DNA of 64,000 nucleotides, taken from the sequence record OZ335964.1; one strand, given 5' to 3'. Shown here in pieces: positions 3,553 through 9,201 of the stretch (within the stretch, counting starts at the first letter, position 1; the number at the start of each line of letters is the position of its first letter). A program made the translations under genes and the position numbers. The notes below the pieces were generated by a model. It saw nothing but the letters and a program-made list of their open reading frames with translations, did not search any database and was not told the DNA's origin. The stretch comes from a phage.

Positions 3553-5604
3553 TTACATTTTAAATTTATCTGGCATAGCGTCTACAGATACCAGATCAGC
3601 GATAAGCTGACGTAGAGTTGCCTTATCTGCTTTCTTACGTTCGGTTTTAGCTTCGGTAATAAAGCTGGAGAAAGACAGGTCAGAAGCAGGTTTAACAACA
3701 CCTTCACGGATGAATGCATCACCGTCCGCGATCATCTCGCCAGATTCTTGTAATGCTGCCAGTTCATTTTTGTTCATAATATGTGCCTCAATGTAATAAG
3801 TTTCTTGTGAATCCGTCGATGCCGTAGCACGAGTTACCGTATCAAAGGATAACACAACACCGCGAGGAAGTAAAATCTCGCATTCTTTGTAAGCAAATGC
3901 TTTGTTACCTACTGGCAATACAGGGATGTTTTCCGCGCCAGCAATGGAGAAAGCAACATTAGCGCCACCTTCACCGCGAGATCCAGCCATAGAATCTACA
4001 CCAGCAACGGCACTAGCCACGTTTGCATTCCAGCCACCAAAAATGTTAGGTGCAAGGGAAGTGCTCACATAGTTTTTAAAGTAAAACGCTTTTTGCTTAC
4101 GTGCAGTTTCCCACATTTGAGACCGGAAGTCCATACCACGATACAGAATAGTACCAGGATCAAGTTTAACGCCATAGTTAGAGAAGGCATTATCCAGTGC
4201 ATCGCACATCTTGACCAATTCTTCTGGATCTGCGATGCCTTCAAACTCTTCCAGCTTACGGTCGGTTAGGAAGTTGTTCATATTGATGTATGCTGCATCG
4301 GCATATTCGCTCAACACAAAACCTTCCGCGCCAGGCAGATCAAGATCAATATCTGCCATCATTTCACCCATGTTGCTAGCAATTGCTTCAAACATACCGG
4401 AAGCAACATTACGTAGGGCATCGGTTTTAATCTGGGTGATATGACTACGCAGCATTTCAGCTTTTACATCTGCTGGCATAGACTGGTCTACTCGATCCAT
4501 TGCCAGTGCGGTGATCTTGTTTTCGAATACTTCCTCGCTCATGATTTCTTTTAAGCGTTTGATTGATGCTGCGATAACTTCCGCAGACAACGGATCATAT
4601 TGATCCTGAACTTTTACCAGTTCACTTACTGCGTATTTTGCATCGGCTTCGCTTTCAAAAATAGTACGCATGAAACCATAGCGAGTGATAATATCACTTG
4701 TCCAGTCATTCAGAGAACGGGCGGTTGAACGTTCTAAGGCTTGACGATCAATCAGAGTATTAAACTGTTTCTTAGGTTCGGCTTCGGTGATATCTTCTTC
4801 CGGTTTAAGATTAATTTTTTCTGGATGATTCACATAGTCGCTGTTATAGGTCGCTTGAGTTTTCAGCATTTCTTCTTTAGTCAAACGAGACTTAGCCGCT
4901 ACACGTTGTTCTGCTTCCGCGTTTCGTTCTTCTTCTGATGCAAGGCTAGCCGCATACGCTTCATCTTTAGTCAGAGATTCACCAGTAGCTTTAGATACCC
5001 AGCGATCACCTAAATCACTTTCTACTTTAGTGAACAGGGAATCATCAAGTTTAATCCCTTTAATCTTATCAATCGACATCCCGCGACGCTTGACAACAAC
5101 TAAAGCGATCTTTTTGCTGGTCATTACTTCCTGCTGGAATACTTCAAACTTAGGAGTACGACGCACCAAACGCTCTATAACGCGCTTAACCAGTTCGGTC
5201 TTACCTTTCATGCGGGATACGTTAAAACGGAACATAACAGCGTCTAATTGCGCTTTACGGGCTGTTTCCATAACCACATCAAAAGCACTTGCCATAACTG
5301 CAATCGGGTTATCGCCTAGACCATTTTTAAGCTGTACAATACGACCGCTTTTGTTCATCTCGCACAGTACAACATGTGCGGTCTTGTCACCCATACGAAT
5401 GATTTTAGGTGTTTTGTTGGTGAAGTTACAAAGACGGACAATCACATCTTTATCGCGTGTCTGTACTGCAAAAAGCTGTTTAGGGTTCTGCTTAGGCTTT
5501 AAGCACTGTACCGGAGCAATACTACCAAAGTTTTCTTCCTCTTCCGTCAACAGCCATTTCTCGAAAGATTCAATCATTAGATCGTCGATTTCTAAGTTAA
5601 ACAT
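3553..5604 (-). CDS. alt: ADP-ribosyltransferase Alt (packaged, modifies host RNA polymerase in T4)
   Basis: 683 aa (T4 Alt 682 aa); C-terminal ART motifs ILYRGM, YVSTSLA, YKECEILLPRG; synteny between 54 and 30. Confidence 0.8.
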   Translation of the reverse strand: MFNLEIDDLMIESFEKWLLTEEEENFGSIAPVQCLKPKQNPKQLFAVQTRDKDVIVRLCNFTNKTPKIIRMGDKTAHVVLCEMNKSGRIVQLKNGLGDNPIAVMASAFDVVMETARKAQLDAVMFRFNVSRMKGKTELVKRVIERLVRRTPKFEVFQQEVMTSKKIALVVVKRRGMSIDKIKGIKLDDSLFTKVESDLGDRWVSKATGESLTKDEAYAASLASEEERNAEAEQRVAAKSRLTKEEMLKTQATYNSDYVNHPEKINLKPEEDITEAEPKKQFNTLIDRQALERSTARSLNDWTSDIITRYGFMRTIFESEADAKYAVSELVKVQDQYDPLSAEVIAASIKRLKEIMSEEVFENKITALAMDRVDQSMPADVKAEMLRSHITQIKTDALRNVASGMFEAIASNMGEMMADIDLDLPGAEGFVLSEYADAAYINMNNFLTDRKLEEFEGIADPEELVKMCDALDNAFSNYGVKLDPGTILYRGMDFRSQMWETARKQKAFYFKNYVSTSLAPNIFGGWNANVASAVAGVDSMAGSRGEGGANVAFSIAGAENIPVLPVGNKAFAYKECEILLPRGVVLSFDTVTRATASTDSQETYYIEAHIMNKNELAALQESGEMIADGDAFIREGVVKPASDLSFSSFITEAKTERKKADKATLRQLIADLVSVDAMPDKFKM

Positions 5605-5645
5605 TTTATATCCTCTAGTTGATAACCTATAAACCTATATTTATG

Positions 5646-5673
5646 AAAAAAGGGGCTTAACGCCCCCTTTTTA
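5646..5673. terminator. hairpin terminator
   Basis: GGGGC-TTAAC-GCCCC hairpin with flanking A-run/T-run. Confidence 0.55.
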
Positions 5674-5886
5674 TTATAATGCACCATCAAGCAATTGCTC
5701 TAAGGTGTATCCTGAATAGTCTTTTTCAATCAGGATATATTTTCCTACTCGTTTAATCCAGCCACGCATTTCAACGTATTCTGCGTAGTTGATAGTGCGA
5801 GTTGTTCCATCTTCTAGCAAAGCAGTACCGATTTCGTTAATGCGGTCATAAGTTACGTCGGTGATGATGATTTCGATGTTAGCCAT
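5674..5886 (-). CDS. hypothetical small early protein
   Basis: 70 aa; preceded by promoter cassette and RBS AGGAG; begins MANIE like the 8047..8298 gene, whose first codons are part of the same cassette. Confidence 0.5.
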   Translation of the reverse strand: MANIEIIITDVTYDRINEIGTALLEDGTTRTINYAEYVEMRGWIKRVGKYILIEKDYSGYTLEQLLDGAL

Positions 5887-5922
5887 TTGATACTCCTTAG
5901 TAGTTCGTTTCGGTATGTGTGC

Positions 5923-5951
5923 ATTATAGGGGATCGATGATCCCCTGTCAA
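5923..5951 (-). promoter_or_regulatory. sigma70-type early promoter cassette
   Basis: Minus strand: TTGACA - 17 nt palindromic spacer GGGGATCATCGATCCCC - TATAAT, then conserved leader CCGAAACGAACT and RBS. Confidence 0.6.
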
Positions 5952-5958
5952 CAACTTT

Positions 5959-6477
5959 TTAGTTATTTTTTAATTGCTCATCTTGCAATAAAGCAATCAC
6001 ATGCTGGCGATGTTCTTCCGACTGAGGCACACCGAAAAAGTTTGTTTTGTAGAAATACTCTAATCGGTCTTCTCGTGTGCTCTCTTCCATCATGATCGCG
6101 GGTAGTCCGAGATTTCGGAAACGTCGCTTTTCTGCTGGCGTAAAATCGCTGTAATACAGCATAGAATCATCATTACCAGCAATGCTAAACTCATCCTTCA
6201 TGAAAGAGAATATTGCGTTTAAACGCTGTTTACCGTCCACGATTTCGATCTCATAGCGAGAGCCATCATCAATCTTAGCCATTGCGATAGCACCAACCGG
6301 AAAATCATTAATCAGGTTTTCGATAAACATACGTTTGTTTTCTGTGTCCCATACTAAAGGACGCTGATAATCTGGGTTCATGTTGATAAAGCCATCTTCT
6401 AGCCATGCTTCATAGACAGATATGACAAAGTTTTTAGTATTGGTATAGTAACGGCGTTTAGGCGTTAAACGGTTCAT
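5959..6477 (-). CDS. DUF262/ParB-like domain protein (GmrS N-terminal-domain-like)
   Basis: Motifs DYQRPLVW, FPVG and VDGKQRLNAI (DGQQR-like); start MNRLTPKRR chosen by RBS AGGAGA and coupling to upstream stop (track ORF extends to 6513). Confidence 0.6.
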   Translation of the reverse strand: MNRLTPKRRYYTNTKNFVISVYEAWLEDGFINMNPDYQRPLVWDTENKRMFIENLINDFPVGAIAMAKIDDGSRYEIEIVDGKQRLNAIFSFMKDEFSIAGNDDSMLYYSDFTPAEKRRFRNLGLPAIMMEESTREDRLEYFYKTNFFGVPQSEEHRQHVIALLQDEQLKNN

Positions 6478-6478
6478 G

Positions 6479-6811
6479 TTATAGTCTCCTGAATGGATCA
6501 TCACGTAAATCAATATCTTTTAAGAACTCATCCCATGAATGGCGGATATTGTTCTTAATTCTCCAGATAAGCGCAGGGATTGAACGCTCTCCCATCTGGA
6601 AGTAAGGATCATATGATCCGTATGCCCAATATGCTACTACAATTCCACAATCAGCGCAATAGTATTCTATTTCACTTGCTGGCGACCAAAGTCCATCAAT
6701 ATGATCGGTGATCTTGCTTTCGATGTTATGGCTATGGCAATCAGGGCAACGGATGCAATGACCTTGTTTATCGTAATTTGACGTTAGCGAATACTTAAAC
6801 AATCTCATCAT
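6479..6811 (-). CDS. Cys-rich zinc-ribbon protein
   Basis: 110 aa with CIRCPDC ... CADCG cysteine clusters; start overlaps upstream stop (ATGATGA). Confidence 0.5.
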   Translation of the reverse strand: MMRLFKYSLTSNYDKQGHCIRCPDCHSHNIESKITDHIDGLWSPASEIEYYCADCGIVVAYWAYGSYDPYFQMGERSIPALIWRIKNNIRHSWDEFLKDIDLRDDPFRRL

Positions 6812-7572
6812 AGATCCTTATTGGCTTCAAATACTGCCTTTGCGAATCCTCGCGGGGTAAGTGACCTGATAGTCTTTGTTCTGGTTCCTTTCCCGCCTAG
6901 CTTAGAATGCTGTTTACTGTACCCTTTCTCAATCGGCAACGGTTTCTTTTCTGGCATTATAAAGCCTTGTCCGGTCCATAAGCAAGTCTTTTTCGGGTAC
7001 ATATCACGGGCGGCAATATACTCAGGAAACGTAGGATGTATATCATCTTCCGGCAAATAACCGCCATATTCCCACGGGTGGAACATGTAATCAGGCTTAC
7101 GCCACATGCTAGAGATAACGCTTACAGGATTCTCTATCATGTAGGGAACTCCTAGCCATTCACCCAAATAAGCTGTTATTTTAGCTGCCCGTACATCATG
7201 AACTTGAATTAATGGTCCTTGCTCTCGTTTCTTTCGTTCAAAGTGTGCAGCGCCACTAACAGCTAAATTTGAACAGCTAGGAAACGCAAAGATCATATCC
7301 GGTTTGCCCCATTCAAGATCCATCGCCCTTTCCAACCAATCCAGATCTATCCATGAATTAACATAAGTTAAATTTGGGTGTTCAAATCGAGTGTTATACT
7401 TTTTATATGTTCCATGATCGGCATCATCAGCATTAAAGCAGATCACTTTATGACCTGCTTTAGCCCATTCTAGACCCATAATACCGGACCCATCGAATGT
7501 ACAAAATATAAGTTTACTTTCCGTGGTTTTCATGATAGCCATACTCTCTTTCTGCTTTGGTTCTAACTGCAA
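6808..7572 (-). CDS. SAM-dependent methyltransferase-like protein with C5-cytosine-MTase-type motifs
   Basis: 254 aa; FDGSGIMG (motif I FxGxG), FAFPSCS (motif IV Pro-Cys), MIENPVS (motif VI ENV-like) with canonical spacing; no obvious TRD or motifs VIII-X, so function uncertain. Confidence 0.45.
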   Translation of the reverse strand: MQLEPKQKESMAIMKTTESKLIFCTFDGSGIMGLEWAKAGHKVICFNADDADHGTYKKYNTRFEHPNLTYVNSWIDLDWLERAMDLEWGKPDMIFAFPSCSNLAVSGAAHFERKKREQGPLIQVHDVRAAKITAYLGEWLGVPYMIENPVSVISSMWRKPDYMFHPWEYGGYLPEDDIHPTFPEYIAARDMYPKKTCLWTGQGFIMPEKKPLPIEKGYSKQHSKLGGKGTRTKTIRSLTPRGFAKAVFEANKDL

Positions 7573-8050
7573 CGGCTTCTTCTAGTGTGTCGAAACACCC
7601 TAGATATTTTCTATCACCGCGTCGACCGCCGCCAATTCTAACTACCCATTTATTGTATTTGTTTTTATGTATTCCACTATGTCCGCTTGTATTCTTTTTA
7701 GACTTTGTTTGATTTCTCATGTTGTCGCGGTGTAGTTTAAGTTCAAAGTTAACCGCTCTATTATCTGTCTTAATGTGATTAATATGATCTACTTCATATC
7801 CTTCTGGTATAGGTCCATTGTGGATAATATAACATACTCGATGAACTTTGTAGTTAATAATTTTACCGTCAATTTTTATTGACGATTCAAGATAACGTCC
7901 ACCACTTCCTAGTGACCCGACCTCCTTTCCAGCCCATGCAGCATTCCATTGTTTTATTCTTGATGGGTGTATATCTGTTCTCTCCTTCCATGTAAGGATA
8001 CCAGTGTCAGGATCATAATTAAAGTATTTCTTCCAGTCTATATTGTTCAC
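7514..8050 (-). CDS. HNH homing endonuclease with AP2-like DNA-binding domain
   Basis: 178 aa; HNH_3-type motif VDHINHIKTDNRAVNFEL plus AP2-like SGHSGIHKNKYNKWVVRIGGGRRGDRKYLGCFDTLEEAVAVR. Confidence 0.75.
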   Translation of the reverse strand: MNNIDWKKYFNYDPDTGILTWKERTDIHPSRIKQWNAAWAGKEVGSLGSGGRYLESSIKIDGKIINYKVHRVCYIIHNGPIPEGYEVDHINHIKTDNRAVNFELKLHRDNMRNQTKSKKNTSGHSGIHKNKYNKWVVRIGGGRRGDRKYLGCFDTLEEAVAVRTKAEREYGYHENHGK

Positions 8051-8298
8051 GCTGCCCCCATTGGTTTGATAGTAACAGAATCTAAAAGACCTTTGTTAGC
8101 CAGTTCGCGGCAAGTTTTCAGATCCGTAACTTCCCAGCCAGCCGCAATCAGGTTATCAATCAGGCTGTTAGCAACTTCTTCGCTCATGAAAGAGCACTGT
8201 TTGCCGATGGTGTAGCGTACACGCTGTAATTTCAGTTTACGGAAGCCTTTAACGTTCAGGTCTTTAGCGATTTTCTTTGCGGTTTCGATGTTAGCCAT
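8047..8298 (-). CDS. hypothetical small early protein
   Basis: 83 aa; promoter cassette and RBS upstream; stop overlaps HNH start. Confidence 0.5.
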   Translation of the reverse strand: MANIETAKKIAKDLNVKGFRKLKLQRVRYTIGKQCSFMSEEVANSLIDNLIAAGWEVTDLKTCRELANKGLLDSVTIKPMGAA

Positions 8299-8338
8299 TG
8301 TTTGATTCTCCTAAGTGGTATCTCGTCTTGATGTTTGT

Positions 8339-8368
8339 ATTGTAGGGGATCTCCCGATCCCCTGTCAA
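8339..8368 (-). promoter_or_regulatory. sigma70-type early promoter cassette
   Basis: TTGACA - 18 nt palindromic spacer GGGGATCGGGAGATCCCC - TACAAT on minus strand. Confidence 0.55.
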
Positions 8369-8381
8369 CAACTTTTTTAGA

Positions 8382-8855
8382 TTATTTGCACCAAATTCGA
8401 ATTATTTCGTCTCGTTCAAATTTCTGCCAGATTACTCGGTCACCCGCTGCCATGATACTGACAAATCCAGTTGTGTTTCCTGTGTACTTGCTTTTAGTCT
8501 CGGCATCATATTCAAAGAATGGTGCTTTAAGATCGCTAAACTCATCTTTTCCCACAAACTTCATAACATGACGATGCGCGTAATATTCGCTTCTTAGTGT
8601 TGTTGTGATAGTTCCGTCATTATTTGATTTCAGATGTAATTCTGCATCTTCATAAAGACTTGCATCTCGTTGTTTACTTTCAATACCGTCGTTATATGTT
8701 GATTTCGTTGCACTCCAACATTGATAAGTTTTATCAACATTTTCGATCTTTTCCTGTGTCATATCAAAAAGCGGTGCAACCTTTTTCTTAGCCGCGTGTG
8801 CTACGTTGGTCATGGACAGTGCTGCAACAACCACAATAGCAATAATCTTCTTCAT
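8382..8855 (-). CDS. secreted/periplasmic protein, unknown function
   Basis: 157 aa; N-terminal signal peptide MKKIIAIVVVAALSMTNVAHA. Confidence 0.6.
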   Translation of the reverse strand: MKKIIAIVVVAALSMTNVAHAAKKKVAPLFDMTQEKIENVDKTYQCWSATKSTYNDGIESKQRDASLYEDAELHLKSNNDGTITTTLRSEYYAHRHVMKFVGKDEFSDLKAPFFEYDAETKSKYTGNTTGFVSIMAAGDRVIWQKFERDEIIRIWCK

Positions 8856-8885
8856 AGTATTCTCCTTTTGTTTTGTGTTGGGAGT

Positions 8886-8914
8886 ATCTTAGCGACACTC
8901 CCGTTATTTTTCAA
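8886..8914 (-). promoter_or_regulatory. early promoter cassette (variant)
   Basis: TTGAAA - 17 nt - TAAGAT on minus strand; -10 lies in loop of GGGAGT..ACTCCC inverted repeat. Confidence 0.45.
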
Positions 8915-8919
8915 ATCTT

Positions 8920-9201
8920 TTATTCGTGATTAGTTTCGATGTTATACATTTTGCACCAGTTCAGCCAATCGCCCAGATCTTGATAGTTGATGCTTTTATC
9001 TGCTGCCATCGTTTTGGTCTTGATACCCATATGTGCGTTATGAGTAAGCATTTTTACAGTGAACTCAATTTTATCGCCTTTAGCTTTAACATCAACCAGT
9101 TTGGTCCACTGGCTACCAGCGCCGCGAATGTTCATACCAACGATGTTTCCGATGTATGCTTCTTTGTTTTTCAGGATTTCGGTTGCTTTGATGAATTTCA
9201 T
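8920..9201 (-). CDS. hypothetical protein
   Basis: 93 aa ORF with RBS and promoter cassette upstream. Confidence 0.5.
   Translation of the reverse strand: MKFIKATEILKNKEAYIGNIVGMNIRGAGSQWTKLVDVKAKGDKIEFTVKMLTHNAHMGIKTKTMAADKSINYQDLGDWLNWCKMYNIETNHE

Follow-up and report, generated by a model that had tools for sequence, protein, structure and literature searches.

Phage K42 (KarlJaspers-like) carries a 711-bp dcm gene, the loss of which was found to let the phage escape from retron Ec86. Expressed alone in E. coli, K42 Dcm was toxic in retron-bearing cells and gave rise to 5-methylcytosine (5mC) in multicopy single-stranded DNA (msDNA), as detected by liquid chromatography-mass spectrometry, and a C82A/E128A/K175A/K176A mutant of the enzyme was inactive. 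Its predicted structure superposes on DNMT3A (for all of these findings, 10.1101/2023.08.16.553469). Promoter-early stem-loops (PeSLs) were described in RB49 and phi1 as regulatory cassettes that are mobile and mark the limits of modules shuffled within hyperplastic regions (PMC2839356, PMC4122927). Both systems bear on the locus described here, a block of five minus-strand genes at positions 5959-8298 of a 64,000-nucleotide (nt) stretch of phage DNA (record OZ335964.1; hereafter the window), which is a Krischvirus (RB49-like) genome. The block is probably a PeSL-bounded early unit in a Krischvirus hyperplastic region, composed of evolutionarily independent accessory genes that include a mini-Dcm, an HNH homing endonuclease tracking dcm-like genes, a zinc-ribbon protein and a ParB-like DUF262 protein. 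Its anatomy, homologies, folds, presence/absence polymorphism and divergence profile were obtained directly, and from these we infer enzymatic activities and target sites.

The methyltransferase (MTase)-like gene, a homolog of RB49p189, is located at 6808-7542 on the minus strand, with a longest open reading frame (ORF) of 254 amino acids (aa) that extends to 7572. Its true start is likely the ATG at 7542 (244 aa) or that at 7533 (241 aa, as annotated in phiS). The 254-aa length, as well as the 184-aa longest ORF of the DUF262 gene, is likely overstated, since 241-244 and 172 aa match the annotated RB49/phiS genes. The METHYLTRANSFERASE-like protein encoded by the longest ORF matched phrog_757, "DNA methyltransferase", with E 5.2e-89 over residues 8-253 (PHROGs). 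It was recognised neither in Pfam and NCBIfam nor in PDB sequence searches by phmmer and also with a 54-sequence profile against PDB, and the only near-matches were weak Rossmann/SDR ones. PF00145 did not match it even at E<=1, and among 54 diverse family members the best single one reached E 0.0067 (1/54). The link to solved structures is therefore that of the predicted structure, the sequence searches having given none; the model adopts a fold like that of DNMT3A/B and bacterial C5-MTases, and its neighbours also include C5-carboxymethyltransferase and the tRNA enzyme Dnmt2. On this model, the RB49p189 homolog is predicted to have the C5-cytosine-MTase fold, with a variable region that is very short. 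Profile and model thus lead to a DNA methyltransferase family and a C5-MTase fold, not to an unrelated fold.

In the 244-aa numbering, the catalytic residues are Cys90, E137-N138-P139, K184/K185 and R226. The family alignment revealed an F-D-x-(S/T)-G loop, F-P-x-C, E-N-P, Y-x-K-x-T-x-x-W and I-R-S-x-T-P-R-G-F as invariant or near-invariant; C90, E137 and K184 were invariant in the 54 diverse members. A preliminary description of this DNA had proposed C5-MTase motifs including motif IV (Pro-Cys) and motif VI. The fold was borne out, motif VI reads E-N-P, and motif IV is Phe-Pro-Ser-Cys rather than Pro-Cys, most family members having F-P-P-C; as already said, PF00145 gave no match. Canonical motif VIII of C5-MTases is Q-x-R-x-R, and Y-x-K-K-T lies where it would be expected. 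Between the motif VIII-like segment (K184-T186-W189) and the motif IX-like R226 only about 35-40 residues are present, so that no sizeable target-recognition domain was found in this interval, in agreement with the earlier observation that none was recognisable.

About 3100 close homologs of this protein were recovered, with 994 representatives at the 50% level. The family is present in 1512 phage records, T1-like, rV5-like, Webervirus and Dhillonvirus phages among them, and nearly all of its members are 225-250 aa long. Over its full length, the window protein shares 56% identity (E 1e-89) with bas06_0055 of KarlJaspers (Bas06), the product of the 711-bp dcm, and C90/E137/K184/K185 align with C82/E128/K175/K176 of K42 Dcm. 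By homology, then, the window MTase adds a further member to a phage mini-Dcm family that has been characterised before. Reasoning from the characterised homolog, it would be an orphan enzyme of about 240 aa that catalyzes methylation of specific DNA cytosines at the expense of S-adenosylmethionine, probably at CCWGG-like sites. Such methylation would shield phage DNA from methylation-sensitive restriction, and the same activity may also expose the phage to sensing of the retron Ec86 type.

These features could be read differently, as belonging to a catalytically altered or non-DNA protein, i.e. an RNA or nucleotide MTase, another transferase, or an inactive DNA-binding decoy. The missing Pfam, NCBIfam and PDB sequence matches, the P-S-C of motif IV, the Y-x-K-K-T in place of Q-x-R-x-R, and the presence of C5-carboxymethyltransferase and Dnmt2 among the fold neighbours all point that way. 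However, the K42/KarlJaspers enzyme, a producer of 5mC, has the same non-canonical motifs; the window protein retains all of the family-invariant residues, and between Pro and Cys of motif IV different family members have P, D, E, V or S. In TB34 DNA, no non-canonical nucleosides were found (PMC13390438), which also favours an altered enzyme, but 5mC at a few hundred sites would involve so few of the cytosines that a bulk nucleoside search might not report it. RB49 DNA was cut by HpaII and NheI (PMC4041780), and this digestion, together with TB34 having no bulk modification, fits an enzyme of rare sites rather than a global one. Loss or change of the DNA-methylating activity is thus considered unlikely, and a functional mini-Dcm is preferred.

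Some observations nevertheless weigh against such a mini-Dcm. With the P-S-C of motif IV and a variable loop unlike that of K42 Dcm, the window enzyme could depart from the latter in activity and specificity. As far as is known, E. coli B carries retron Ec86. This strain is a routine host for RB49-type phages (PMC4041780), and growth on a host with Ec86 is awkward for a Dcm that triggers this retron, unless specificity or counter-measures differ.

Depletion of CCWGG was considered as a clue to the specificity of the MTase and was rejected: the depletion is genuine (0.38 of expectation) but belongs to a wider avoidance of palindromes. Against Markov expectation, GGCC was found at 0.35, CCWGG at the value just given and GATC at 1.01, and GAATTC, AAGCTT, GGATCC, CCGCGG, CCATGG, AGCGCT and TCCGGA are all absent from the whole window (1-64000). 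This avoidance is consistent with a phage whose DNA is unmodified and meets type II restriction enzymes.

The block was compared with those of related phages. Matches to the region at 80-99% identity were found in 64 phage records, most of them named as RB49-type Escherichia, Shigella and Salmonella phages. In RB49, the annotated order is RB49p190 (83 aa), p189.1 (81 aa), p189 ("DNA methyltransferase"), p188, p187, p186, p185 and alt, and MIZ6, TB34, SAP and phiS have the same gene order in the annotated regions examined. Four of the five window genes are homologs of RB49p190, p189, p188 and p187, and the HNH gene is the variable member. The MTase-like, zinc-ribbon and DUF262 proteins were each found in 57 Krischvirus records at identities of at least 90-95%, and the region of the 83-aa gene (8260-8061) showed 98-100% nt identity in an alignment of RB49, MIZ6, TB34 and phiS. 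Judging from the shared gene order and the conservation in 57 records, the 83-aa, MTase-like, zinc-ribbon and DUF262 genes appear to form a fixed Krischvirus block. The gene content of relatives, a comparison suggested in the preliminary description, thus separates a conserved block from a variable HNH gene. To our knowledge, the combination is not one of T4, as had been noted at the outset; that the block might prove to be conserved and already characterised holds for its conservation and for the annotation of its MTase (DNA methyltransferase/Dcm), and not for characterisation in Krischvirus.

The HNH gene (7514-8050, minus strand) encodes a homing endonuclease of 178 aa, which matched HNH_3 along the full profile (1-46; E 6.9e-15, Pfam) with an intact nuclease motif. 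The C-terminal region, AP2-like and putatively DNA-binding, showed weak AP2/ERF similarity (E 0.018 and 0.088 to plant AP2 structures). The earlier label of HNH-AP2 is therefore sound for a complete HNH_3 domain, with a weaker AP2/ERF-like C-terminus. Among Krischvirus records, the gene was found only in the window and in phiS, at 96% identity. All HNH-less Krischviruses examined (RB49, MIZ6, TB34 and SAP) have an unrelated 81-aa p189.1 instead, and the replacement of RB49p189.1 by the mobile HNH gene starts exactly at a shared GTGA. RB49p189.1 was also considered as a decayed HNH gene and was found to be an unrelated small ORF (phrog_7065).

The identity profile and alignment of the window against the HNH-less Krischviruses revealed 76-86% identity across 7460-7261 and 66-68% in the junction bin 7560-7461, with flanks of 94-100% identity on either side. 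Divergence is confined to the first 300 nt or so of the dcm-like gene beside the HNH gene, and the changes are mostly synonymous. A diverged 5' part of this kind, next to an HNH gene, is the signature of a co-conversion tract, and the segment 7261-7513 (minus strand) is read as such.

Outside Krischvirus, the next 13 relatives of the HNH protein (64-67% identity) belong to T1-like phages, most of whose records annotate a DNA or cytosine methyltransferase alongside. In the three relatives that were detailed, all from Warwickvirus, the HNH gene lies directly upstream of a dcm-like gene with an overlap of 35 nt, and this dcm is 44% identical to that of the window. A14b has the same dcm allele (P-D-C) as the HNH-bearing T1-like relatives, without an HNH gene. 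SLUR29, with flanks 98-100% identical to those of Poky, has a different dcm allele and no HNH gene. At this site, Poky (HNH gene and P-D-C-type dcm) and SLUR29 (P-P-C-type dcm alone), both of Warwickvirus, share 40-60% nt identity; this contrast suggests that the endonuclease and the adjacent MTase allele were exchanged as a unit in Warwickvirus. The idea that P-S-C or P-D-C in motif IV marks an endonuclease-resistant target was rejected, because the P-D-C allele of A14b stands without HNH. About 20 records named "UNVERIFIED Campylobacter phage" match the dcm region of coliphage Poky at roughly 89-97% nt identity; one of them, A14b (MG065640.1), is classified in Drexlerviridae (Hanrivervirus), and these records look mislabelled or contaminated.

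Taken together, the HNH gene is read as belonging to a lineage of free-standing homing endonucleases that follow dcm-like genes from one phage family to another. The endonuclease would cleave HNH-less alleles in or near dcm, and repair would then copy the HNH gene together with adjacent dcm sequence. Such homing and repair would explain both the exact replacement of p189.1 and the diverged tract of about 300 nt. The view that the other genes were cargo of the homing endonuclease is mostly reversed by these comparisons, since the block is already present in the HNH-less RB49, MIZ6, TB34 and SAP; rather, the HNH gene is read as having arrived at a pre-existing block, together with no more than some 300 nt from the 5' part of a dcm gene.

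The DUF262 gene (5959-6477, minus strand; longest ORF 6513-5959), a homolog of RB49p187, lies between the zinc-ribbon gene on one side and a PeSL on the other. Its true start is most plausibly the ATG at 6477, 1 nt past the stop of the zinc-ribbon gene, and not that of the 184-aa longest ORF; the resulting 172 aa is the size of RB49p187. The protein matched GmrSD_N (PF03235, E 6.3e-20, Pfam) as well as solved DUF262 proteins including BrxU, and has kept all of the core motifs (YQRPLVW, DGKQR and NFFGVPQSEEH), of which YQRPLVW and DGKQR are invariant in the subfamily. A DUF1524/HNH nuclease domain was not found by Pfam or in the model, the 172-aa protein ending after the DUF262 core. The preliminary description had recognised just this, a GmrSD-type N-terminal domain with its QR motifs and no HNH/DUF1524 partner. 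The model (pLDDT 93.7) has a ParB/Srx fold, with PadC, CTP-bound ParB, Noc and BrxU as best matches, and the protein is therefore modelled as a complete ParB/Srx-type nucleotide-binding domain without nuclease. A profile search for the stand-alone family of about 170 aa yielded 2130 homologs, which were found in other T4-like genera (Slopekvirus, Pseudotevenvirus and others), in lambdoid prophage early regions beside RecT/exonuclease VIII, and in one extrachromosomal record of 85.6 kb.

A decoy against GmrSD/BrxU-type enzymes, in a block that serves primarily as an anti-restriction module, might be suspected from the DUF262 domain that the window protein has in common with these enzymes, and from prophage homologs that sit in early-left accessory regions beside recombination genes, one of them near a Lar-type restriction-alleviation gene. 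But RB49 and TB34 were reported with ordinary cytosine, so that type IV enzymes should pose no threat to them (PMC4041780, PMC13390438), and the DUF262 family is equally consistent with any DNA-binding role that depends on nucleoside triphosphate (NTP). A decoy function of this kind is considered very unlikely, and the best guess is that the DUF262 protein binds DNA in an NTP-dependent manner or acts in anti-defence.

The zinc-ribbon gene (6479-6811, minus strand) encodes a Cys-rich protein of 110 aa, a homolog of RB49p188 (phrog_2993, function unknown). Two of its homologs, in Nonagvirus and Felixounavirus, were checked and sit among unrelated genes, at a distance from any methyltransferase or DUF262 gene annotated there. 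In Slopekvirus and Pseudotevenvirus, the ORF that immediately precedes DUF262 was considered as a zinc-ribbon homolog and is not one. With evolutionarily independent genes, the zinc-ribbon and DUF262 proteins would be separate accessory proteins.

Fusions of ParB domains with MTases are known. By this analogy, the MTase-like, zinc-ribbon and DUF262 proteins (the trio) might make up one DNA-modification machine, in which DUF262 and the zinc ribbon supply DNA loading or target recognition for an MTase poor in target-recognition sequence. The three genes are translationally coupled by an ATGA overlap and a 1-nt spacer behind a single promoter, occur in the same 57 Krischvirus records, and combine an MTase that has only the short interval described above with a ParB/Noc/PadC-type nucleotide-binding fold. 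The tight coupling and the invariable co-occurrence count against full independence of the genes and leave room for a genus-specific functional link. However, when the K42 homolog was expressed by itself in E. coli, DNA was methylated and the retron set off (10.1101/2023.08.16.553469). In KarlJaspers, no DUF262 or zinc-ribbon homolog was found in the 50 kb searched, and nothing similar is annotated beside dcm. No dcm-like or zinc-ribbon homolog was found within 0.7-6 kb of DUF262 in 11 non-Krischvirus places (0/11), and unannotated ORFs of 234-246 aa near prophage and phage-plasmid DUF262 genes, considered as dcm-like, gave none by tblastn. The settings of the Nonagvirus and Felixounavirus zinc-ribbon homologs speak against one machine as well. 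In all, co-occurrence of the trio was not found in the 14 places examined outside Krischvirus. Being conserved only in Krischvirus, the trio is not treated as one system, and a joint machine is judged improbable. The suggestion of a modification or anti-restriction module was not supported, given that the genes are separate outside Krischvirus and that the characterised MTase homolog worked alone in E. coli; independent accessory genes are the preferred reading.

A further role was considered in view of SAP, whose DNA was reported in 2026 to carry glucosyl-hydroxymethyl-cytosine, in contrast to its 99.96%-identical twin TB34 with plain cytosine; dCMP hydroxymethylase or glucosyltransferase genes are absent from Krischvirus (PMC13390438). 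If the trio were a DNA-level cytosine-modification module, it would perhaps be the missing entry point of this cytosine hypermodification. In a stretch of 5.7 kb, SAP differs from TB34 only by one additional PeSL copy of 79 bp that follows the DUF262 gene directly (SAP stretch positions 2038-2116 against TB34 2037; window equivalent about 5953-5958), by four single-base indels between annotated genes and by a 2-nt difference at the stretch end, the PeSL copy being the largest difference seen. Coding changes in the block as the source of the modification difference were rejected, as the coding sequences are identical. With identical coding sequences in the unmodified TB34, a link of the trio to SAP hypermodification is extremely unlikely.

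The arrangement of the locus is consistent with joint expression of these genes. Minus-strand ORFs of 83, 178, 254, 110 and 184 aa were found in the window as first described, 254 and 184 being longest-ORF lengths, and they are packed by overlapping stop and start codons: a GTGA at 8050-8047 joins the 83-aa and HNH ORFs, the HNH ORF runs at its 3' end into the beginning of the MTase-like ORF, and an ATGA at 6811-6808 joins the MTase-like and zinc-ribbon ORFs. The first gene of the module (8047-8298, minus strand) encodes the 83-aa homolog of RB49p190 (phrog_14908, function unknown); this protein gave an unexpected PADLOC match (E 2.3e-5) to RT_UG35, a defence reverse transcriptase, at profile positions 722-785 of 938. 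The two best sigma-70 matches within 5400-9000 are at 8368-8339 (11/12) and 5951-5923 (12/12), and in both a GGGGATC...GATCCCC stem-loop sits between the hexamers. The upstream PeSL cassette (8368-8339, minus strand; -35 TTGACA, GGGGATC-GGGA-GATCCCC hairpin, -10 TACAAT) would drive the block; a Shine-Dalgarno sequence and then the 83-aa ORF come after it. The downstream cassette (5951-5923, minus strand) ends the module and would drive the next gene, a 70-aa ORF at 5886-5674. Three copies of the composite promoter/hairpin pattern were found in the window against 0 expected, and no convincing terminator was found within the block. The co-expression from a single promoter cassette that had been proposed is thereby upheld, and the block appears to be one PeSL-bounded early transcription unit, with its genes co-transcribed from one cassette.

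Neighbouring ORFs are gained or lost precisely at the PeSL cassettes. The window segments 5887-5958 and 8299-8381 are without the RB49p186-like (59 aa) and RB49p191-like (55 aa) ORFs of other Krischviruses, and their absence exactly at PeSLs fits a PeSL-mediated loss of modules. An ORF of 157 aa at 8382-8855 (minus strand), the N-terminus of which resembles a signal peptide, is homologous to RB49 ORFan192 in a mosaic manner, with 57% identity overall: in it, the first 46 residues are near-identical (one substitution) and the remainder has diverged. RB49 ORFan192 was shown to circulate as PeSL mini-circles (PMC2839356). The 70-aa ORF at 5674-5886 (minus strand), a homolog of RB49p185 (phrog_10679), is 50% identical to bas06_0050 of the T1-like KarlJaspers, so that p185-type ORFs are a further accessory gene common to Drexlerviridae and Krischvirus, beside dcm and HNH.

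The block is thus largely ordinary, and the remaining novelty is modest, consisting of a cross-family dcm-tracking endonuclease and a mini ParB-like protein. Names can now be supplied for three "hypothetical proteins" of RB49-type phages, and the Krischvirus MTase is tied to an enzyme family already known for 5mC and retron triggering. The predicted effect on host range is sensitivity to Ec86-type retrons and protection from restriction of the CCWGG type. Modestly new is one HNH/AP2 lineage at the dcm 5' end in both T1-like siphoviruses and T4-like myoviruses, dragging dcm sequence with it, which would make a clean example of a homing endonuclease that follows a widespread accessory gene from one phage family to another. 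The stand-alone DUF262 family of 170 aa is common and deserves experimental attention.

Compared with known systems, the window PeSLs are ordinary, showing the same composite of -35, GC hairpin and -10 that flanks modules in RB49 and phi1. The MTase resembles K42/KarlJaspers Dcm in size (236 against 241-244 aa), catalytic Cys, the Glu of ENP, the KK pair, the DNMT3-like predicted fold and phrog_757 membership; it differs in phage family and neighbours, in having P-S-C where K42 Dcm has P-P-C, and in the loop between motifs VIII and IX, so that its target may differ. With the catalytic domains of DNMT3A/DNMT3B, M.HhaI and M.HaeIII (PF00145) it shares the fold at 10-16% identity, in contrast to which it escapes Pfam detection, has a far smaller variable region, and carries Y-x-K-K-T for Q-x-R-x-R. 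The DUF262 protein has the motifs of GmrSD, BrxU and SspE (QR, DG(K/Q)QR and FxxxNxxG) and their ParB/Srx fold, whereas, unlike these proteins and ParB, Noc and PadC, it comprises 172 aa without a DUF1524/HNH nuclease, a helix-turn-helix or a dimerisation domain. The HNH protein is like its Warwickvirus counterparts (PeterMerian bas05_0051 and Poky gp49) in HNH_3 and AP2-like architecture, in overlap with the dcm start and in absence from close relatives. The difference is that the window genome is a T4-like myovirus in which only the first 300 nt of dcm travelled with the endonuclease, whereas Warwickvirus swaps the whole dcm allele.

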